Made by a program: the position numbers and the translations under genes | The notes under the pieces: model-generated | Databases searched by the model: none | The model's input: the letters and a program-made list of their open reading frames with translations, nothing else | What the model was told of the DNA's origin: nothing | Source of the DNA: Heptranchias perlo | Lineage: Eukaryota | DNA length: 64,000 nucleotides | Reading direction: 5' to 3' | Assembly: GCF_035084215.1 (NCBI RefSeq) | Contig: NC_090337.1 | Coordinates: 63,860,001 to 63,924,000 of the forward strand | Part shown: positions 40,731-53,689 of the stretch, piece after piece | Layout: the number at the start of each line of letters is the position of its first letter | Numbering within the stretch: position 1 is the first letter of the stretch

Positions 40731-41014
40731 AGTAAATCTGTTGAGTAGTTATTGACAGTTAACTATCAGGAAAGTGTGGCTTATATGTAATTAAGGGGCA
40801 TATTGTGGAAATCTTATTTTGCACTATAAAAAATGACAACAGCAGAACTCAGCCAAGGGATGTTACATCTATTTTGAATACCTACTGAAAATAAATTGAT
40901 GACATTTCTCCCCACACAACCTGCCAGCTCTGTGTAGATGTCCATTAGCTTTTGGAGCACAAATGGTTCTTTGCGAACACTGCTTTCTGTTTCAAGAAAA
41001 TAATTAACCGAGGA

Positions 41015-41560
41015 ATAAAAAAGTAAAAACAAAGTGCTGGAAATACTCAGCAGGTCAGGCAGCATGCGTGGAGGCAGAAACAAGAGTTAACGGGGGGGTT
41101 GGGGGGCGGGTGGGAGTTGAAAATAGTTGTTTTTTGGATCGCGACTGCAACCCGGCTTTATTTCCGGGTTTAAAGTCGGCGCGGAAAAGTGCAGGCTTCT
41201 CACTGGGAATGCAAAGTCCGAAAATGTTGTGGTTGCGACCCAAAAAAACAACTATTTTCAACTCCCACCCGCCCCCAACCCACCCGTTCTTGGGATTTAA
41301 AATCACCCCCAATATCGCAGGTGAATGACCTTTTATCAGAACTGGAAGATGTTAACGATGAACAGCTTTTAATCAGGTACAGAGCCGGGGAAAAGGGGGC
41401 CAGGGAAAGAACGAAGGAAAAGGTCTGTGATAGGGTGGAGGGCAGGAGTGATTAAATGACAAAAGGGACGATGGTGCAAGGCAAAGGGGGTGATAATGGG
41501 ACAAGTATAGAAACAAAAGATGGGTCCAGAGGAGGTGTAAATGGTTATAGCAGAATAGCA
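41015..41560 (-). mobile_element. Penelope-like terminal remnant (second family), split by a MITE
   Basis: Minus strand ctgataaaaggtcattcacctg//cgttaactc...tgctgcctgacctgctgagtatttccagcactttg, resembling a shark Penelope end with a degenerate hammerhead core. Confidence 0.6.
41092..41310. mobile_element. Palindromic MITE
   Basis: ~58-bp inverted arms (41092-41150 / 41226-41286); right end taaaatcacccc; left end apparently truncated. Confidence 0.8.
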
Positions 41561-42099
41561 GAGGGGGAGGGAAGCCTGGAAAATCTGGCAAAGCGGAGAT
41601 GGTTGCCGTGGCTCGGGAATGTGGTGGAAGAAAGGCAGGTAGATCCCAGGGGAGTGGACTATCCCGCCGGTGTGTACCAATAGGGGATCCCCACCCCAGG
41701 CACCGGCCCACACCGCCTCCACTCCCAGGGGCTCTGGTGTAGCCATCTTCCATTACCAGCACCTGCTGTCCGAGAGAAAATGGGAGCGGTGGTTAAGATC
41801 TGAAGTGGTTAAACTCCAGGACTGGTGAATTAGCTCATTGGTGGTTTAAGAAACTGGAGGGGGGTGGAGAATGTGGGTTTGCAGGGAAGTAAAAGTAGAC
41901 AGTGAGAAACGTAGGGTCCCTGTAGAATGACGCTGCCTGAGAACTGGGAACAATTTGCCCAGCTTTCCTCTCTGTTGAGGAATGATATGGGTTGTGTACG
42001 TGGGCCCAAAGAGAAAAACACACTTTTTTAAAAAGGCAAATAAGAACTTAAATACTGGATTTTAAAAAAATAATTGCAGACAATTGATTAAGTAAATGC

Positions 42100-42105
42100 T
42101 TTATT
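42100..42105 (-). promoter_or_regulatory. Candidate polyadenylation signal of the MROH-like gene
   Basis: AATAAA on the minus strand ~350 nt past the stop codon, followed by T-rich sequence. Confidence 0.5.
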
Positions 42106-42127
42106 CAAAAATTAACTTTCCAATAAT

Positions 42128-42187
42128 CATAGAATGATACAGCACAGGAGGAGGCCATTTGGCCCATTGTGCCTGTGCTGGCACGAT
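42128..42187 (-). mobile_element. 60-bp CR1 3' tail insertion
   Basis: catagaatgatacagcacaggaggaggccatt...; 7-bp TSD CAATAAT (42121-42127, 42188-42194). Confidence 0.85.
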
Positions 42188-42453
42188 CAATAATAAATAT
42201 AAACAAGTTTTTGTTGCTGAAGATAATTAAAGCAGTGTCCTTTACAGAGAAATAGTGTACAAGTGGGTAAAAAAAACACGCAGCTTCCTATCTGGGGCAT
42301 TAGTGTTGTCAGATAGAACAGCCCAGGCTGTTACCAGACTGATTTCTTGCTTTTGGCCATTTTTAACATCAGAATTCCTTTACTTCAGATACGCTCTTTC
42401 CAAAACACAGTTCCAGCAAATTCCACCTTACAACAGTTTTGTTCTGATGATTC

Positions 42454-45400
42454 TTAGTACATGTGAAGGCGTTCTATTGCCGCGATTGTTTTAATTCGGA
42501 CACTTTGCACGTGATCTGACAGCAAAGTAATCACCTCGTTGCACATCTCATGCGCGGGGGCCGAGCCAAAGTAATCTGGCGGTGCATTGGGCATGAGGAA
42601 ACTTGCAAACGTGACCGCATTTTCTCGCATCTCAGTCTGTAGACTGCTGAAGAAGGAAGCGCAGCTTTTTATGTAGTAGACGACTCTGTCAGGCAAATCC
42701 GTGCTAATGTGCTTGGAGATATCACTCAAATAATTCTCATAATCCAGAGTGCTTTCCTCCAACCCAAGCTCTTGAAACAGCGTGCACATCTTCTTCGACG
42801 TCAACAATGGACCGACCAGGCTCAGCACATGTCTGCAGACCTTCCTCACCTCACTACTCTTGTCATTGAGGTGGAGCAGCAAGCTAGTCAAGGTGGAATA
42901 TATGTGCTCCATGAATACCGGGTTCTGCTGCATACGCCCAAATTTGATGAGCTTTCCCAGTATGTTAAATGCTGCGGCTCTCACCTTGTCCTGCCGATTT
43001 TCGAAGAAAGGCTCAATCGCCAGGGCCACGTCGATTAGAATGGGATCTGCATAATTGTCTTGCAGATTATCCAAGATCTTCGATGCACTTGACATTGCCT
43101 CAATAGCCAGCAGAGCGTTCAGTTTAGAATTCTGATGCATGACGGAAAGCATCGTGGGCAAGAGTTTAGTAACGTATTTGTCTATCTTTTGAGAAGCTCC
43201 GACTGCTGCATTCCCCAAGCCTTTCACAGCCAGCCACTGGACCACAGGGGAATTGTCGATTAAGCATCGAAGCAAGCAGCCCACAAGTGTATCTGTGAGC
43301 AACAACTCTGACACAACTGTGTGATTGAGAAGCTCTCCAAAGAAGGCAGCTGTTGTGATCCTCTGGCTCTCGTGTATGTTAGCAAGGACAGGAGTGAGTT
43401 GGTCGACAATGTTGATGAGGTGAGGGACAGCAAGGTTGGCCATTGTGCTTGCCAGGAGCACAATACCCTCATGGTGCTTTTCTGGCCTCCTGATGAGGTC
43501 CCAGCCTCCTCTTTCTGCCATGCCCGCATCGTGCCCCTTTCCTTGCCTCAGGACAGCTTGAAGTATCTCGACAGAGTAATTACAAGCAGTGATGTTAGAA
43601 GGCTTTGGAAGAAGGCCAAAAGTTTTCCCATCCGCTTGAATTCTAAGAAAGTCCCGAGGCAACCGCGCCTGGACACTGGAGCTGAGATGAATCAGAACAG
43701 TGCTGAATAACTGGGAGTAAAGCATCCCTATCACAGTTTTCGAGTCATGGTTATAGATCATCTCATGAAGAGCACAGATTACAGCCAGAGGCTGATGAGG
43801 CTTTGAATTTGTCACATTCTTGACAAGAGATTCTTTGCTGCTATCGTACAGTAGCTTTAAGTTGTCCAGGAGGTATTTAATTGAGGCCGTGGCTACTGAA
43901 CTGGTTTTCAGTAGTGATCTCCATACATCACTAATGAATTTGTCAAATGGAATGGGGTACCTTAAGAGGCAGGGTAATACTGCTGGCACGTGCTGTGACG
44001 CCAGAATGGAGATAGAACTTGTCACTATTCGTATTATATGCTGCTGAGTAATTGACTGCAGCTGGTTGTGGAGGGCTTTGATCATCCCAGGGACATCTGT
44101 GAGGCCAGCCCCACATTTTGTAATGAGGACATTCATGACAATCGAAGCTGCATAGGAAGTGTTGGCTTGCTCATCAGTAAGTCCTTTGAACATTGTAAAG
44201 AGTAAAGTGTTCAGCTGGTCGTGGGCCACGCAATTTGAGAGAACTTTGCCAACATCGGTGCACACTTGAAACAAGGATTGGCTGCTGACTTGATGTAACC
44301 CGACTTTGATGGCTTTCAGGTGCTCCACCTGAGCGTCTTTCTGATCCGCAGGCACCCTTTCCAAGCGCAGTTGGATGTAAAGTAGTATGTACAAGCATTC
44401 AATGGCTGTCTCCCTTACAATGCATGATGGATCTGTGCAGCGAATCACCATGCATCCAATAATAACAGTCAGGTTATCCGATGGAACCTTATCCTCAAAT
44501 TCAATTTGTTCCAGGTAAAACACCAGGAGTTGTAAAGTGGTCTCAATTGCCTTTTCTCGTTCGTATTCTTTTGCCGATTTCATCCAGACGTCCATGTTCT
44601 TAAATATTGACTGAAGTCCAGCAGGTGACAGATCTAAAAGCAAGAGCTGCTTCAGAAAATCCAGCAGCGAGGCCATTGTGTCAATGAATAGCACGTGCTT
44701 GTCCTCCATGCCCATGGTTGTGTTATCATTGACAGCGCAGACCTCCAAACGTGGCAAGCTGAAGACGCTACTCAGGCATGTTTGAATCAATTCACTATTG
44801 TCATTTAATTGGGGCTGCAGTTTTAAGAGGGAAGTACAGGCGTCAATGGCAGACTTTCGGATAGAGGTTGTCAGTGCTTCCGTTGACTCGGCCTTGATGA
44901 GCTCCTGCATGTAGGTCAGCAGTTCAGCTTTCCTACTGAAGCTGTAGATGAGCTCTTCATCAGATTGGATGGCTCCGGCTAACTGGGTTACAGTCCTGAT
45001 CAGACTTAACTTCAGTGTCAAGTCCTTGACCTCAATTTTCATTCCCAAGATCTTGATATTATAGTGATTGAGCACATTCTCTACAATGTCAGTATCTATT
45101 CTGGCCGGAGTCAGGTCCTTTGGAGAAGATGACACTATACGCCCATAGCACGAGATAAGTGTGCTTTTCACCTTTATTATTTCAATGTCCTCCTGATCCT
45201 TAATAATCCGAAAGTAACTTGCAGTCTTCTTAAAAATGTTTAATTTTGAAAACTCCTTCAGCGCAGTTAGTGCGGTGTCCAAGTGGGTTACAGCACAGTA
45301 GCCAATCCCAGCGGCTATACCCTCTCTCTCCGAAGCGTCATTGTGCCGAACACTCTGTAGCATCTCCTGCAGAATCCTCTTTACCGCTTCTTCATTCTGG

Positions 45401-47385
45401 CTAAGTTGCAGCACTGCACCTAAACACTTGTACACAAACCCCTTCTCTTGCGAAAACTTATCATGACTGTGAAGGCAATTGATCAGTTCTTGGCCAAGCT
45501 GGCCAAGCCAATCATCATCTGCTATCACCTCCAGCGTTTGGGACAAAACATGTACTAATTTTTCTTCCCACTGGCTCTGGAGCAGGGATTTCTTGGAATT
45601 CTCCTGCAGATAGTCAAGCAGAGTTGGAAATTCCTTTTCCCAGACTTGAGTCACTCCTGGGTGGATGTCACAGCCCAGGACTTGCAGTAGGGTCAGAGCA
45701 GGAGCACATCTCCCTTTTCCCAGATGCAGAGATGATGACATAATAAACAGACTTGCTAGCAGTGCGTGACGCCGAGGAAGATTTGAATACTCCTTGTAAT
45801 TGAGAAAACATTCAGTTGACCCAGCTTCTAGTTTCTTCATTGCAAGGGAGGCCAAAGAATTGCAAATTGTGGCTAAGGCATTAGTGTACCGTACCGGGAT
45901 AATAAACTCAAAGAGCAATGGCCAGAGAACATTGTCAATCGGTAATGCTGTCAACATTTTCATCTGTTCTTCGCAAAGCCTCCTTAAATCTAGGTCCGTG
46001 ACCATATCTGCCGTGGTAACGGAGAGCTCCTTAGGGGTTTCCTCATTCTCCCTAGCTGGCAGAGCACACTGTTTGATGATAAACTCCACCATTTCATTTC
46101 CTCCCTCCAAATGTAGGTAATTGTGATTGGCCATGGTGTATATTAACTGGGCAACTTTTCCCTTCACTCTGTTATCGTTGGCTAGAAACACTAGCTTCGT
46201 ACTAGTCAGAATCTGATTCTTCTGACTCGCCATGTAGAGAGGGACCATATTGATAAGGTGATCCAGCACAGTCAGTGTTCCCAGTCGAATTTGGTTGTTG
46301 TTGATTTCCAGCTGCAGCAGAAGAAAATCCACTATCTGGTACGTAAAGGCTGGAGTTAGAAGTTTGAAGCAGCAAAGGACTTCTTTCCGCTGCTTCTGAG
46401 AATATGTGTCAGTGGGCTGGTCCATTGCAATGCAAATCTGATCGTGCAAACTGATAAGCAGGCTGTCCATTTGTATCGTCAGCTCCTCGCTGTTCCTCTC
46501 TATGGCAGTGTGCAGTACACCGTACAGACCCTGTGTGACACAAAAATCGCTAGAGGTTTTCTGGTACATAGACAGGATTGCTGGAATTAACCTGGGCAGT
46601 TCGTTCTCCAGTTTGTCAAAGGGGATCAGATGGGTTATCTGGCCTAATGTCTCTATCACTGCTGTGCTCACATTGTATTCATTCAGGGGCAGCCACATGT
46701 TGAAAAGGACGTCATAAGCAGCGGAAAACTCCTGGAAGAATAAATTCTTCTTCACCGTAGGGTCTGGGGCCTCCTCTATGTCAAACAGGTACGCAAGGAT
46801 GCTTTCACTAAAAATTCCCAAAGCAAAACAGAATACCCACTTGGTTTTCTCATCGGTCACTGTGTGCAGCATAGTCAGCATGGTACGGAGAGCAGGCTTC
46901 AGTAAAGGGACCATGTAATGCACATGTTGTTTACATAGGTTAGCTAGTGCCAGCACCACATAGAAATAGGGTTCCATCCTTGGTTGAAACATTGACAGCA
47001 GCTCATCACAAGCCTCCTTGGTAAACCAATAACCCACATTAAGTAGGAGGCTACTTGCAATTTCCTGGTGCTCATCGGTCACATCCTTCGATTTGGTCAT
47101 TTCTATGGAAGCCAAGGTGATAAGTTTCTTCGCCGCCATCCGGCCCAAGTCGTCAATGTTGTCCTTCACCAGCTGCGCCATCGCCTTTAACAACGCAGTG
47201 CGACGTATCAATGGCAACCTCCTGTGGTGGATGATATACTTACGACAGAACATTAGGACCCCTTCTGCATCGACGCGTCCCAGTTCTTGCAGGGAATCGA
47301 ATACTGTCTGGCTAACTAAGCCACCATCGTCCAAAGGCACCTCCAAAATCTTCGTCAACAAAGCTTCCATTTTGCTGCTCACCAT
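42454..47385 (-). CDS. MROH1-like: Maestro HEAT-like repeat-containing protein, MROH1-like (intronless, probable retrogene)
   Basis: Uninterrupted 1643-aa Leu-rich helical ORF; motifs LASIEMTKSKD, APDPTVKKNLF, AYDVLF, LHDQIC, KEVLCCF, GGNEMVEFIIKQCALP, LLLHLND match MROH1 as recalled, and length is near-identical; strong Kozak (AAAATGG) with an in-frame TGA five codons upstream. Confidence 0.93.
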   Translation of the reverse strand: MVSSKMEALLTKILEVPLDDGGLVSQTVFDSLQELGRVDAEGVLMFCRKYIIHHRRLPLIRRTALLKAMAQLVKDNIDDLGRMAAKKLITLASIEMTKSKDVTDEHQEIASSLLLNVGYWFTKEACDELLSMFQPRMEPYFYVVLALANLCKQHVHYMVPLLKPALRTMLTMLHTVTDEKTKWVFCFALGIFSESILAYLFDIEEAPDPTVKKNLFFQEFSAAYDVLFNMWLPLNEYNVSTAVIETLGQITHLIPFDKLENELPRLIPAILSMYQKTSSDFCVTQGLYGVLHTAIERNSEELTIQMDSLLISLHDQICIAMDQPTDTYSQKQRKEVLCCFKLLTPAFTYQIVDFLLLQLEINNNQIRLGTLTVLDHLINMVPLYMASQKNQILTSTKLVFLANDNRVKGKVAQLIYTMANHNYLHLEGGNEMVEFIIKQCALPARENEETPKELSVTTADMVTDLDLRRLCEEQMKMLTALPIDNVLWPLLFEFIIPVRYTNALATICNSLASLAMKKLEAGSTECFLNYKEYSNLPRRHALLASLFIMSSSLHLGKGRCAPALTLLQVLGCDIHPGVTQVWEKEFPTLLDYLQENSKKSLLQSQWEEKLVHVLSQTLEVIADDDWLGQLGQELINCLHSHDKFSQEKGFVYKCLGAVLQLSQNEEAVKRILQEMLQSVRHNDASEREGIAAGIGYCAVTHLDTALTALKEFSKLNIFKKTASYFRIIKDQEDIEIIKVKSTLISCYGRIVSSSPKDLTPARIDTDIVENVLNHYNIKILGMKIEVKDLTLKLSLIRTVTQLAGAIQSDEELIYSFSRKAELLTYMQELIKAESTEALTTSIRKSAIDACTSLLKLQPQLNDNSELIQTCLSSVFSLPRLEVCAVNDNTTMGMEDKHVLFIDTMASLLDFLKQLLLLDLSPAGLQSIFKNMDVWMKSAKEYEREKAIETTLQLLVFYLEQIEFEDKVPSDNLTVIIGCMVIRCTDPSCIVRETAIECLYILLYIQLRLERVPADQKDAQVEHLKAIKVGLHQVSSQSLFQVCTDVGKVLSNCVAHDQLNTLLFTMFKGLTDEQANTSYAASIVMNVLITKCGAGLTDVPGMIKALHNQLQSITQQHIIRIVTSSISILASQHVPAVLPCLLRYPIPFDKFISDVWRSLLKTSSVATASIKYLLDNLKLLYDSSKESLVKNVTNSKPHQPLAVICALHEMIYNHDSKTVIGMLYSQLFSTVLIHLSSSVQARLPRDFLRIQADGKTFGLLPKPSNITACNYSVEILQAVLRQGKGHDAGMAERGGWDLIRRPEKHHEGIVLLASTMANLAVPHLINIVDQLTPVLANIHESQRITTAAFFGELLNHTVVSELLLTDTLVGCLLRCLIDNSPVVQWLAVKGLGNAAVGASQKIDKYVTKLLPTMLSVMHQNSKLNALLAIEAMSSASKILDNLQDNYADPILIDVALAIEPFFENRQDKVRAAAFNILGKLIKFGRMQQNPVFMEHIYSTLTSLLLHLNDKSSEVRKVCRHVLSLVGPLLTSKKMCTLFQELGLEESTLDYENYLSDISKHISTDLPDRVVYYIKSCASFFSSLQTEMRENAVTFASFLMPNAPPDYFGSAPAHEMCNEVITLLSDHVQSVRIKTIAAIERLHMY

Positions 47386-48533
47386 TTTTACTGTAATTCA
47401 CTCTGGAATCCCAGGTGTCCAAGCTCTTGTTGCACTATTCGTAACAATTTCTTTCTGTCTTTGATTCCTGGAACAGAGTTCTCAACCCTGTGAAATCTCT
47501 TCCTCCAAATTGTTTTTTTTATTGTATTACTTGAGTTCTTTTCTTTCTTACAGAATAGTGCTGAATTAGTCCAGAATTAATTAACTGAATCACAGTTCTT
47601 TATCTCCAATTGCCTACTCTCCGATTCTATGTGACAACAATCTCTATATGTATTTTATTCACTCCTATCCTATTGTTGAATCCTTATTGATTCAGCTCAG
47701 CGCAGAATGTTTCGAACAGACCGATTCCACTGAGAATGCCTTCTTGTGATAAAACACACTGGTTAAATGCAGCACTGTGCTCTCAGCTTCTTCTCACAGA
47801 TCTTCACTAGCTTAGATGGGAGTTTGGAAGCTTAGCTTTCTTTTCTGATCTAGATTTATTCCTCTTATCCCCCTTTAATACAGGGCTAGGTCTCTCTCAT
47901 GATTAGTACAACTCCTTGTAGCACAGAGTTTTCAATCCTATGCAGAGTCTTCCTCAGATTGCTTTTTTGATTGTGTCGTTGATATTGTCATTAAAGCTCT
48001 TTTTTTTTCTTAAAAACCTGTAATCCCCCAAAGGCGACGGTGATTTTGTTTTGAGATGTGGGGGAGTTGAATCAGATTTTCTTTTTGTCTCAACTTCTTT
48101 TGATTCACTGTCTCAATAAACGATGGATTTATTTTAAACCGTACAGTTCTATGGCTATTTAATTGTCTTATATATATTGGTCTGCGCCCTGTCTCAAACA
48201 AGCCTTTCTCTTTTCTCTCTTTGTTTACACTAACACGGTCTTGTCAAAGATCGCAAGTAGATTTTCACTCCTTCTTGTTATTGATTTAATTTCTCGACTT
48301 TTTTCTTTGGGAACGGCTAATTATTATTATTGCTCCCAGTGTAAAAGCCCGTTCTCTAAGGACCCAACTCTTTTCTGTCTGTAATTCCAAATCTTCAATT
48401 TAATATCTCAACAAACTAACTTATTTTAAACGACAGAGCGGGCTTACTTGTTGCTCTAGAAGCCTTTGTAAATGCAGCTTGGTGCAAGTAAAGTTTGTTC
48501 TGAACAGATTTTGATTTCAGACGATGTTCCCTG

Positions 48534-48620
48534 ATGGAGTTAGATCACAGACCAGCCATGATCTTATCAAATGGCGGAGCAGGCACGAGGGGCTGAATGG
48601 CCTACTCCTGTTCCTATGTT
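48534..48620 (+). mobile_element. Short CR1 3' tail
   Basis: gatcacagaccagccatgatc...gggctgaatggcctactcctgttcctatg; flanked by repeated ATGTTCCC. Confidence 0.8.
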
Positions 48621-48989
48621 CCCATGATAAACACAGTGCTCTCAACTTGTCCTTGCATATCTTCACAAGTGGTGATCGAGTTTTGTTCTTGACTCGTTCC
48701 TGATATTGAGTTGTCTCCTTCACCATTAACACTAGGGTCCTCTCCTTCTCTCTTACAATTAACTCTTCACAGCACAGAGATGTGTTCAATCCTATGCCAA
48801 TTATTCCTCAGATTCCTGTTTTGATGATTTCAAACTATTTTCCATGTTTCGTTAAAAGATTTTGTCGATTTGTCCTGAGATTCACTTTCCGGCTCTCCTC
48901 ACAGCCAGACCCAAAGTTTAACTGCGGCATATCGAAGTAGCAAACAAGCTTAGTTTGAAAAGCCTCTTGTGCCATCATTTCCTGTCCTA

Positions 48990-49115
48990 ATACAGTCACG
49001 AATTTCATTGTGATGTCCCGTGACTCGAGCTGCAGCTAACCTGCCAGGTGCTGACCTCACCTGTGAGGGTGAGCTTATTAGCGATTGGTCCAATCATCTG
49101 TGGGTCGATTGGTCA
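48990..49115 (-). promoter_or_regulatory. Candidate promoter of the MROH-like gene
   Basis: Three clustered CCAAT/ATTGG boxes (49084-49112) and GACATCACAATG (minus, 49006-49017) where the purine-skewed upstream tract ends. Confidence 0.3.
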
Positions 49116-49311
49116 TCAGCAAGTTTATCATAAACTATAACCGTATAAGGGCAGATGTGATGAATTTTTGTCCCAGTAGAAAATCTTGCAGGTTGTGCTG
49201 GCCTCCTTGCCCTCAGTCGCTAACATGCACCTCCCAGAGGGTGACGCTGTGCATGGGCTCAGGTCTGAAATAGAGGTATAGCAGTGTATATCATGGTCAG
49301 GGCATCAGCTT

Positions 49312-49805
49312 TGTAGAATCTTACAGCTCAGATGGAGGCCATTCGGCCCATCAAACCTGTGCCAGCATTTTGAAAGAGCTATCCAATTAGTCCCACTCTC
49401 CCTGCTCTTTCCCCATAGCCCCGAAAATGTTTACTTTTCATGAGATTTGTTTCTACTGAATTGCCCCATTATCTATCCATCTGTATAATTCGACATCATT
49501 TGTTTTCTTTAATTTGTGCCTCTAAAATATGGTAACCGGAGATACAGATTTCAGATAATTGGTAAAAGAACCAGGGGGGAGATGAGGAGAATTTTTTTTA
49601 CACAGCGAGTTGTTATGATCTGGAATGCACTGCCTGAAAGGGTGGTGGAAGCAGATTCAATAGTAACTTTCGAAAGGAGATTTGATATATATTTGAAAAG
49701 GAAAAATTTGCAGGGCTATGGGGAAAGAGCAGAGGGTGTGAGACTGATTGGATAGCTCTATGGGCCGAATGGCCTCCTTTTATGCTGTAAGATTCTATGA
49801 TTTCA
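49312..49805. mobile_element. Two CR1 3' ends in opposite orientation (49312-49445 minus; 49530-49805 plus)
   Basis: CR1 3'UTR motifs; ORF 49516 RIFFTQRVVMIWNALPERVVEA. Confidence 0.85.
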
Positions 49806-51074
49806 TTCTCTGACTCACCATGGTCAGTACTATTAAAAATCTACTAGTCGATGACTAAATGTTATAAAACGGAGATAGCTGTGTCTAATGGAAGCCCTTT
49901 GTTTCCATGTTTTATGCTGCTGGGATGGTCTGAATTGATATAAAATGCCCTAATGCCCACATGGCTACCGTATGCCAACCTTGGTACTCGAGCAAACCTT
50001 GCCACATGACACCTGGCACTGCAAGCTCAGCAGATACTATGGAACCGCACTGCAGACAAGGTCGCAAATTCAAAAGCTGCATCAGAAGAGGCCTAACATA
50101 ATATTTTCACCCATGTGTTAGCCCATGGTGCTTTCCCTTAAGTGGTTTCTTGCCTATTCTGCCACACCTACAAGATGCTGCCCCAGTATCTTCAGCACGC
50201 TGGGTGGGAGGCTACCGATGCTCACGGTCAGTGACCTCTAGGAACTCGGGCCTGAGACCAAGGTCAGGTCAGTTAGCATATCAGATGGGTTTCGAAAATA
50301 GTCGTTGTCTCACAAAACCAAAAGTGACAGATAGGAAATATAAAAATCTGACAAGTATTACATTAACTAAAAGCATGAATCACGTTTCAGGTCCCTATTT
50401 TAATCAGCAGCTTTCCTTTCAATTTCAAACAGAGTTTTAAACGTTAATATTTTGGCTTACAATTCCTTTTATATTCCCTTCATGGCTCGCGATCATTTTT
50501 GAACTTTGAGGAGGACTCTGCAGGGTCAACTGGACTGGGATTGCCTGAATCTAGCCCTGATCTGCTGCCTGGGTCATTGCAGATCGGCCTGTCTGGTTTC
50601 TCATATCGTTCCTTTTTGTAGGATTGTTTTACAACCGAGTGCCTTGCTTGTGCCACTTCAGAAACGTTATGGGCGCTAAATTGAGCCGTTTAGCGCCCGT
50701 TGTTTCGGCGCTATACGGCCTCGCTGACATCCAAGATGGCGTCTTGGATGCGCACACACGTTTCCAGTGTGATGAGCGCTGGTATAGGAGTTAGCGCAGG
50801 CGCAGATAACGAACACTGGAATCATGTAAAGTGGGGAGAAAATGGCTTCAATCAGTGCGCAATGCTGATTTAAAGTGATTGACACCGTCTTGGGACTTAA
50901 CGCTCAACTCAACGCACAGTCTTAACCGCGACCATCTGACCGTGTCTTAGAGTGCCTGGAGGACCCCCTACCGGCGCTATTTAAAGGGACCACGCAGGAT
51001 TTGCAGGTTGGTGGCTGGATTATTGTTGCTCGCTGCCGAGACATTTGTAACTGTTTTTGGCGGTCTCCTGGACT

Positions 51075-51352: not shown

Positions 51353-51898
51353 TGTCACTGCCACTTGCTGCCTCTTGATATGCGCCACCTTCTCCTGCAA
51401 GAATTGGGACCTGTGCCTGGGTGATGTGCCTGTCATGGTTGAATAGCTGCCAGTGTGTGTGGCCTGTGAGTTGTGGGTGGGCGGCTTGAAACAGTGGTAA
51501 TGTGCAAGGGTGAGAGGAAGCATCTGATTGGAAGAGTTGAGTACTGATGGAAAGAGTTTATTGGTATGTGGGTGATGGGGGTGTAGTGCATGGAGCAGTT
51601 GGTAGGAGACGCCACTTGACAGTTGACCTCACTCACCTTGACCAATCATGTCAAAGCATTGAACTTCTTCCTGCACTAAAATCACCCCCATCATGTGGGA
51701 TTACAATCAAAAATTGGTGGCTTGCATTTGGAAACAGTAACCTAGTGCTCTCTCGTCCTGCTGCGCTCTGTCCATGGGGAAAGAGATGTCGATATTTCTC
51801 CTGTAGTCTCGGTGACCTCCTTGATGCAGGGATGGACTGCAAACTGTGAAATGTTGCTGATGTCACCTGCTGCAGTCTGAAAGGAGCGTGTAGCATAA

Positions 51899-51978
51899 TT
51901 ACATAGAATTACATGGAATGTACAGCACAGAACAGGCCATTCGGCCCAACAGATCTCTGCCGATTTTCATGCTCCATC
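51899..51978 (-). mobile_element. Short CR1 tail inserted in the Harbinger transposase
   Basis: ttacatagaattacatggaatgtacagcacagaacaggccattcggccc. Confidence 0.75.
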
Positions 51979-53689
51979 TCAGCGCATAAAAGCTAAGGGC
52001 CACGGTGACCTTGACGGCCATAGGCAGTGCTGCCCAGGCCCTGGTGCGAGGCTCGAGTTGTGGATGCAGCAGGTGACATAGCTCGGTGACAGTCTCCTTG
52101 GTGAAATGAAAGCACCTCAGACATTGCTCCTCAGTGAAGTTAATGTAGGAGAAGTGCTCCCTGAATATGGCCTCCTGCGCAATGCCCCCCTCCTCCTCCT
52201 CCTACCTCTCGTCACAGCTGCTTCTGCTCTTTCCTGTTTTCCTTGCTGCTGCCCCTCGTCCTCCAGCTCCCAAGGCAATCTTATCAGACACCCATGACTG
52301 CGGTCAAACTGCTTAGAAGGCAGCCAAAAACAGTGCACCATCAGCAAAATCATCATCTCAGCAGTCAAAGTGAACTTTCCAGAATCAGGAAACAGGCCAG
52401 AAGTTAGCCAAGAGCCTGAAATGACAAACCAGCAACTATCCTGTAAGTACTGCAGGATCCATTTAAATAGTGCTGGTGAGGGGTCCTTCCTGTTAGCACC
52501 ACGAGTTGGTGGCCAAGGTTATCACCAGACGAGTCAGGCGCTAGGGCAGAACAATATCAGAAAGGGGTCCTCCAAAAAGGACCCTAATTTACACACGTTA
52601 TTCATTATTTTAAATAGTTCTGGCGTGCGTCCTGGTGTCTACAGAGGAGCTCAGTCCAATATGGCGGGCAGCGCACTTCCGGTTCGAAATGAGCATGAGC
52701 TTCCTGCCCGCCATCTTGGAGGCTTTTGTGCCCATTTAGTGCCCAAGAAACAGGTGCGACACGATCAAATTTCTAGGCCCATGTTCTGTCCATGATAACA
52801 TTCGCAGAATCATTGAAAACAAAGTCCTCCATTGTGTAGTGTTGCATTACCACCATGCTGTGTGGGACAGACTGAGGACAGATCAAGCAGCTCATAACTG
52901 GGCAGCTCCTTGAGCAAGAATAAATATAAAACAAAACTAAAAGCAACTGGCATAGATCACATGACTGTGATAGTGAAAGGGTTAAGCTACTGTCTTGGGC
53001 AGACAATTAAAGTGCAGCCATGGAACAGACAAGTCTAAGTATGGTCGAAAATTATTGGGAGAAGCTCAAGCAGAACATTTTGAGGAAAAAAAGATGCAGC
53101 AACCTTGAGTAAGAAATAAGAGCTGGGGCCTCATGCTTAACCGTTTGTCAGTTTCAGACAAAAGGGCAGCACATGGTGCTCTGGTCCTTCTTTGTGGTGG
53201 TTGTTGTTGGATAGGAGGCGCTGTCAACGTAGGCTTGGCTGAACATTGGCACCTGCGACAGTGGGACCATGAGCTGACACCCAGTCCGCTTGATACTTGG
53301 GTCCACTTGGCCGAAGGTTCCAGCAAACATTTTAGCCTTATCTCTCGGCCATGGCTGAGAATGGGAAGGTTCATCAAGCCTCCTGCTCCCATTTGTTGTT
53401 TGATTAGTCACCACCATTCTTGGTTGCATGTGGTGGGGCTCTGTATTTCTCTGAGGGCCATCAGTAGCAGTAGAATCACCATGATCTGTAACCTCATGGC
53501 CTGGCACATCCTTCACTCCTTCAACATCATATAGGAATGTATAAGGGTATCCCAGGAGTAGCACCAGACATACCTTAGAATGGTGTACCAACCTAGTGAC
53601 GCTAATACACGGGGCTACCTGCACGCTAAACAGGTCCCACAACCAATGGATCAGAGAAATACTGAGCCCCACCACATGCAACCCCTCCC

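Follow-up and report, generated by a model that had tools for sequence, protein, structure and literature searches.

The elephant TP53 retrogene expansion and the primate core duplicons are cases in which one retroposition was followed by duplication at the DNA level, leaving nested variable flanks around a core. In vespertilionid bats, according to one report, Helitrons amplify retrogenes in larger DNA units, sometimes with an acquired promoter (PMC4224331). According to the VGP Phase I survey, retrocopies are scarcer outside mammals and are for the most part species-specific, as counted by a method that drops families with more than five paralogous copies (10.64898/2026.06.24.732306). Canonical MROH1 (also HEATR7A or HPO-27) is a mediator of lysosome fission that interacts with WASH-actin; among mouse tissues, testis has the highest level of Mroh1 mRNA (PMC13587356, PMC5450189).

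Here we describe an intact and constrained intronless MROH1 paralog of Heptranchias perlo, which we read, as probable rather than secure, as one copy of a ~10-kb cassette that an ancient burst of DNA-level copying spread through the genome. The closest described process is the transposon amplification of retrogenes in bats (PMC4224331): there too an mRNA copy was amplified in a larger DNA unit, most copies decaying and few being under purifying selection. The bat retrogenes are of more recent origin, are in many cases incomplete and travel with a defined carrier, whereas the shark cassette holds a whole 4.9-kb ORF and has survivors in sharks and rays, with no Helitron ends identified. Ordinary vertebrate retrogenes, as presented in the VGP Phase I survey, likewise show intron loss and the retention of a minority under selection, whereas the shark family has about 90 copies, kilobase-long common flanks and at least eight intact members. 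Compared with elephant TP53 and the primate core duplicons, the shark copies are dispersed over more than 30 contigs, form a star-like burst and include survivors with full-length frames. Canonical MROH1 was the nearest known family in every search and resembles the present gene in length and Pfam families; the latter is nonetheless intronless, only 36-44% identical, multi-copy, faster-evolving and not the ortholog. No published description of the intronless family or its burst was found in searches mostly of the openly available literature. Its proteins are already in databases, nearly all named plain 'MROH1'.

The window (the whole 64-kb stretch of DNA that was analysed) carries the gene on its minus strand at 42454..47385, as a single open frame of 1643 aa; the next longest stop-free frame of the 64 kb is 351 aa. 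A sequence-only reading of the same DNA had claimed an uninterrupted 4.9-kb frame with a strong start context, an upstream in-frame stop and a downstream AATAAA, and every one of these features was located: A at -3 and G at +4, a TGA five codons before the ATG (47398-47400, minus strand; the frame opens at 47397), and AATAAA at 42100-42105 on the minus strand, in the same position in several sibling copies. Frame, Pfam, orthologs, tree and omega* (defined below) together mark it as an MROH1-derived ORF of orthogroup a. All four MROH-specific HEAT domains of the Maestro HEAT-like family exceed their curated cut-offs over the full length (PF23210, E=5e-177; PF21047, E=5e-60; PF23227; PF23221). 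Among the 18 other long frames of the window, Pfam revealed no host-gene family, and the three that pass the curated cut-off are all LINE-type reverse transcriptases or endonucleases. Just before the AATAAA, sibling alignments delimit a 67-bp repeat fragment inserted in the 3' UTR (42116..42182, minus strand), which is private to this gene among the copies aligned and which we take to resemble a CR1/SINE 3' end. A DDE_Tnp_4 remnant lies at 51737-52165, ~4.4 kb upstream of the ORF; such Harbinger-type transposases are hugely abundant genome-wide (34,316 first-look candidates, many with open frames near 500 aa).

A search for a separate multi-exon parent had been proposed, and spliced MROH1 is indeed present, on C2 and C151 (C-numbers denote contigs of the same Heptranchias perlo assembly). 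Querying the genome with part of a ray canonical MROH1 gave exon-sized matches of 76-80% identity on C2, and mapping yielded 21 such matches, 17 on C2 and four on the unplaced C151. The assembly splits this gene between C2:168083301-168158641 and C151:43142-56596; the middle exons are absent from C2, where a gap of 200 N stands at 168103874, and four of them are on C151. Eighteen parent introns of 0.4-16 kb were directly seen, with GT and AG near the match ends (a loose check). The window's ORF, 44% identical to the mapped parent residues, spans all 18 of those junctions unbroken and therefore has mRNA ancestry: the introns were lost through an mRNA intermediate. The place of MROH1 ortholog, that is, grouping as the genome's spliced copy, is held by the C2/C151 gene and not by the window's.

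The window's gene has many intronless relatives. A first genome search returned at least 73 matches, many of them long open frames, and pooling the coding loci gave at least 94 on 35 contigs, or at least 91 on 33 without duplicate contigs; the resulting figure of about 90 is a lower bound in which a few short uninspected matches may be exons of spliced paralogs. Among 38 directly inspected loci, 30 are decayed and eight are distinct intact intronless genes: the window's gene, C41, C44, two on C46, C11 and two on C12. A further two frames, on unplaced contigs, are near-identical duplicates. C41 and C44 are 61-62% identical to the window's protein and the other intact paralogs 38-42%. The two C46 paralogs (C46:7710967-7715856 and 7813769-7818741) are ~100 kb apart and have GC3 values of 0.79 and 0.91 (others 0.50-0.58); white shark and zebra shark each have two proteins of the C46 orthologous type, apparently on one contig. 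Close to C11 and C12a, broken copies at C11:12.38 Mb and C12:0.65 Mb contain internal inversions of ~0.9 and 1.5 kb. Directly after the clade B genes at C12:215900 onward, C12:75527700 onward and C29:8765500 stand kilobase tandem arrays with units of roughly 31-37 bp, grown out of the 3' UTR.

The window's protein has orthologs in horn, white, saw, cat, bamboo, epaulette and whale sharks as well as in sawfish, devil ray, electric ray and skates, with identities of 65-80% in the rows scored. C41, C44, C46a, C11, C12a and C12b each have orthologs of their own; none was resolved for C46b. Two catshark proteins of ~1650 aa come from contigs of only 5.6 and 6.2 kb, which therefore leave little room for introns. 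In sawshark, at least four closely related proteins of orthogroup c (P0022, P0027-P0029) suggest a recent lineage-specific expansion. The gene had been proposed as a cartilaginous-fish retrogene, of which the elasmobranch part (sharks, rays and skates) is borne out: no chimaera protein was among the matches listed in three protein searches, which is not evidence of absence. In an 18-row tree rooted on five bony vertebrates, the outgroups including neither lamprey, chimaera nor invertebrates, the intronless rows are monophyletic (100/100) and sister to elasmobranch spliced MROH1 (100/100), and a 66-row FastTree with eight redundant rows left out has the same topology (support 99); long-branch attraction among the fast intronless rows could inflate this monophyly. 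Three well-supported internal branches (0.09, 0.07 and 0.41 substitutions per site) separate the window's gene from the parent. In outline, the analysis shows an intronless family that apparently derives from one ancient retroposition in the elasmobranch lineage.

Sharks and batoids are both represented in orthogroup a and in orthogroup b, so that the split between the two orthogroups predates the shark-batoid divergence. This age is based on species distribution and not on mutation rate, because the published shark rate is per generation (PMC10587355). Shark-ray identity is 62-68% for the window's gene versus 67-75% for canonical MROH1, a moderately faster evolution.

A DNA tree of clade A (22 rows: three intact and 19 decayed, three short copies dropped) is star-like, with inner branches mostly of 0.000-0.014 and tips of 0.15-0.23. 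Three sub-clades depart from this pattern, pairing the window's gene with C13:56.6 Mb, pairing C44 with C44:9.4 Mb, and uniting a trio around C33:7.6 Mb. No stop occurs among the 1313 resolved column-majority codons of 15 decayed copies, and the source was therefore an open gene. When changes are counted against column-majority codons, four-fold sites supplying the neutral spectrum, the median omega* of 18 decayed copies is 1.04 (range 0.73-1.22), most of the copies having about the expected number of stops; to judge from their codons, most copies were evidently dead on arrival. The C33:7.6 Mb trio has omega* values of 0.73-0.88 and fewer stops than expected, as if its source had been constrained for a time. 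Omega* is 0.51 for the window's gene, 0.54 for C41 and 0.69 for C44. Pairwise NG86 dN/dS among these three is 0.30-0.37, against 0.61 among decayed pairs, a method biased low in which the contrast is weightier than the values. The codon comparison thus shows the window's gene, C41 and C44 kept open under purifying selection while most copies decayed neutrally from the outset.

The decayed copy C44:9419719-9421200, 360 kb from the intact gene at C44:9777768, is 90-98% identical to it in the ORF and 76-80% right after the stop, suggesting gene conversion that would be confined to coding sequence. The sequence-only reading had taken the gene to be old and selectively retained, and had proposed a dN/dS check. 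Both points are answered in its favour by the orthologs across sharks, rays and skates and by the omega* of 0.51 versus 1.04 in decayed copies, the selection estimate being paralog-based (dN/dS of 0.30-0.32 against C41 and C44). With parent introns lost, purifying selection and retention across species, the locus has the properties of a retrogene by descent, and on these grounds we consider it a real, functional-looking retro-derived gene.

Similarity between the copies extends far beyond the frame. Flank alignments define a 5' flank common to dispersed siblings at 47386..50005 (minus strand), which reaches ~49925 with most clade A copies and 50005 with the C13:56.6 Mb copy, is A-rich on the sense strand and is broken by three short repeats; part of it (47386-48530) is internally duplicated in the window's gene and in its sister copy C13:56.6 Mb. 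Alignment and sequence place a promoter-like block with paired CCAAT-like boxes at 49000..49100 (minus strand), ~1.6-1.8 kb before the ATG, and the shared flank runs ~0.8 kb further upstream. E-box-, CRE- and ETS-like words occur in the sibling blocks, putative motifs like the CCAAT-like boxes of the window's block. On the other side, flank alignments show the 3' UTR and proximal 3' flank at 41882..42453 (minus strand) to be common to clade A copies, similarity persisting ~220 bp past AATAAA, and a distal family-specific block at 40732..41022 (minus strand), 1.4-1.7 kb past the stop, to be common to C44, C37:26.5, C30:20.7, C30:21.5 and C21:54.4. Over clade A, ~2.5 kb upstream of the ATG is common to the copies, and on the 3' side family-specific blocks, for the most part in collinear order and interrupted by subsequent indels, occur over at least 2.5 kb beyond the stop. 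Sense-strand A content in four clade A flanks is 33-36%. Clade B has a different 5' flank of ~1.1 kb.

The parent's flanks have no match to clade A or clade B flanks beyond common repeats, and its UTR is unmatched. As kilobases of non-coding flank are common to dozens of siblings and none detectably to the parent, the immediate origin of the window's gene was therefore an already intronless cassette. The claim of retroposition accordingly divides: the RNA step stands through intron loss, and a direct single retrocopy at this site does not, given the three internal branches to the parent and the sibling flanks. That a single retrocopy of spliced MROH1 mRNA inserted directly here is, despite the intronless full-length frame, the parent and the purifying selection that fit it, barely credible for a gene nested deep among ~90 intronless loci with flanks common to siblings and not to the parent, a contradiction lifted only if this locus is the clade A source, against which its side-branch position with C13:56.6 Mb argues.

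Under the cassette reading, MROH1 mRNA would have been reverse-transcribed once in the elasmobranch lineage, giving the single intronless clade. A descendant that had acquired a promoter-like 5' flank of ~2.5 kb, together with no less than 2.5 kb on its 3' side, would then have seeded dozens of loci across many chromosomes before the shark-ray split; while the burst itself is evident from the star phylogeny, the DNA-level route is what we infer, a DNA transposon or duplicon-type process being the likeliest carrier. Most copies then decayed neutrally, as shown above, with the window's gene, C41 and C44 staying open under selection. Signs of the DNA-level route are the similarity on the 3' side, which continues well beyond AATAAA and for no less than 2.5 kb from the stop, and the ~0.8 kb shared upstream of the promoter-like block. 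The near-equal frequency of the two ends of the unit, the stretches that show both flanks and the upstream DNA common to C36 and C29, all detailed below, point the same way.

The copies were also compared with the marks of particular carriers, and clade A yielded none, which counts against the DNA-level route. No long direct or inverted similarity was detected between seven 3' and six 5' clade A flanks, the single match being of 29 bp (E=0.019), and no convincing target-site duplication was seen at the two junctions tried. No empty carrier free of MROH-linked sequence was seen among 37 stretches. Both flanks are present in 10 of these 37, several with large internal deletions, which could equally be old decay. 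Six of 11 extra stretches have family flank with no coding remnant within ~10 kb, and one more ended short of a known coding match. As for the inverted repeats of a Pack-type element, no long ones were seen in the clade A flanks covered. In clade B, an inverted-repeat element ends where the homology of one sub-group begins, and this sub-group has a transposase-like 3' junction, with no matching right end found. In that sub-group, C36 and C29 have 6.1 kb of upstream DNA in common across chromosomes, starting at the end of the high-copy element, and in both a transposase-like fragment, unmatched by transposase queries and presumably Harbinger-like by its motif, is fused after the UTR. This junction is confined to the one sub-group, and such transposases are ubiquitous in the genome. 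At the furthest block common to the copies, short of the cassette ends, visual inspection revealed no Helitron hairpin.

The high-copy element, of 800 bp with ~21-bp inverted ends, has 8,467 candidates genome-wide, the best copies being 82-84% alike (L110:2900-3680), and a partial copy occupies 32267-32466 of the window; considered as a general carrier, it was rejected, as it has unrelated positions and orientations in clade A loci. Also rejected were 3' transduction with two different tails, since the blocks turned out to be chiefly collinear segments of a single flank interrupted by deletions, and a decayed LINE ORF1 or Gag within the 5' flank, since none of the 51 longest stop-free flank stretches scored above a Pfam cut-off and tblastx gave no convincing signal. 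The integrase-like N-terminus of P0021 had no match near the copies. Ribozymes and other RNA families fared no better, Rfam giving no match over gathering score and only three sub-threshold miRNA-type matches in six loci.

An alternative that we consider unlikely, though it accounts for several observations, is serial retroposition, in which a ~10-kb promoter-containing read-through transcript of an intronless source was recopied by LINE machinery, as a non-autonomous protein-coding retroelement. Its classic pattern, a star-shaped tree of copies that were dead on arrival and lie on many chromosomes, is what the family shows, and the A-rich sense strand, which is common in retroelement RNAs and counts against the DNA-level route, fits it as well. 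Four of the five clade B copies aligned have a sharp 5' boundary at a promoter-like motif. LINE copying would however leave 5' truncation, of which there is no sign: the far-5' flank and the 3' UTR are about equally frequent (33 matches versus 25, the latter to the first 271 bp; rough genome-wide counts from different queries). Nor do the copies behave as direct LINE-mediated retrocopies at their 3' ends, where similarity persists for kilobases past AATAAA, or 2.5 kb upstream, and some sub-clades have up to 6-10 kb of common upstream DNA. Of three candidates for young poly(A)-terminated retrocopies, two were discarded: at C1:191.8 Mb the seeming A-rich tail end continues into family sequence, and C44:9.4 Mb, with its drop in identity from ORF to UTR, fits gene conversion. 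The third, the ambiguous C11:12.4 Mb, has similarity to C11:9.6 Mb that stops at AATAAA, as serial retroposition would have it; its identity is patchy (72-99%) and a repeat follows the AATAAA.

More speculatively, and in our judgement rather improbably, the cassette could have been a protein-coding mobile element in its own right: it would have captured a full-length MROH1 cDNA whose product aided spread in the elasmobranch germ line, the frame staying open through 0.41 substitutions per site and seeding dead-on-arrival bursts, with at least eight copies later domesticated by sharks and rays into private membrane-fission paralogs.

Capture of an MROH1 mRNA by an LTR-type or other full-length-copying retroelement would explain intron loss, the keeping of both ends, the A-richness and the star burst in one step, its terminal repeats being now unrecognisable. 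We regard it as highly improbable, as no repeat between the 5' and 3' sides was detected although flanks of different copies align at 62-75%; the direct repeats at both ends that mark an LTR element were not found within the flanks covered. No Pfam family, of retroelements or otherwise, exceeded the cut-off in 51 flank peptides (the longest 51 of 146 stop-free stretches in the flanks of 14 copies), and the Rfam result for six loci is equally blank.

Returning to the cassette reading, the function of the window's protein is inferred from homology. It would be a full-length HEAT-repeat scaffold with a role akin to that of MROH1/HPO-27 in the fission or trafficking of endolysosomal membranes, its probable site being a specialised tissue, for instance the germ line, an assignment that we put forward tentatively. 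The protein keeps 246 of the 337 residues (73%) invariant in 16 canonical MROH1 rows, and its function may therefore have shifted with the loss of the other 91. A sequence search found no solved structural relative. In three runs presumed to be RNA, two short exact contigs of low depth were found; among the records listed as containing the ORF, none is catalogued as RNA. The testis peak of mouse Mroh1 mRNA would be consistent, by analogy, with a germ-line route for the first retroposition.

Beside the single spliced gene, shark and ray genomes appear to harbour at least eight intronless MROH1 paralogs as a hidden family, of consequence for assigning orthologs in sharks. A large host cDNA seems to have behaved like a transposon here, in a lineage for which few retrocopies are reported. 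Its dead copies record the source sequence and so provide a built-in neutral control for selection on each survivor, and the survivors would give structure-function work a set of naturally occurring, long-diverged versions of a lysosome fission factor that was described recently.
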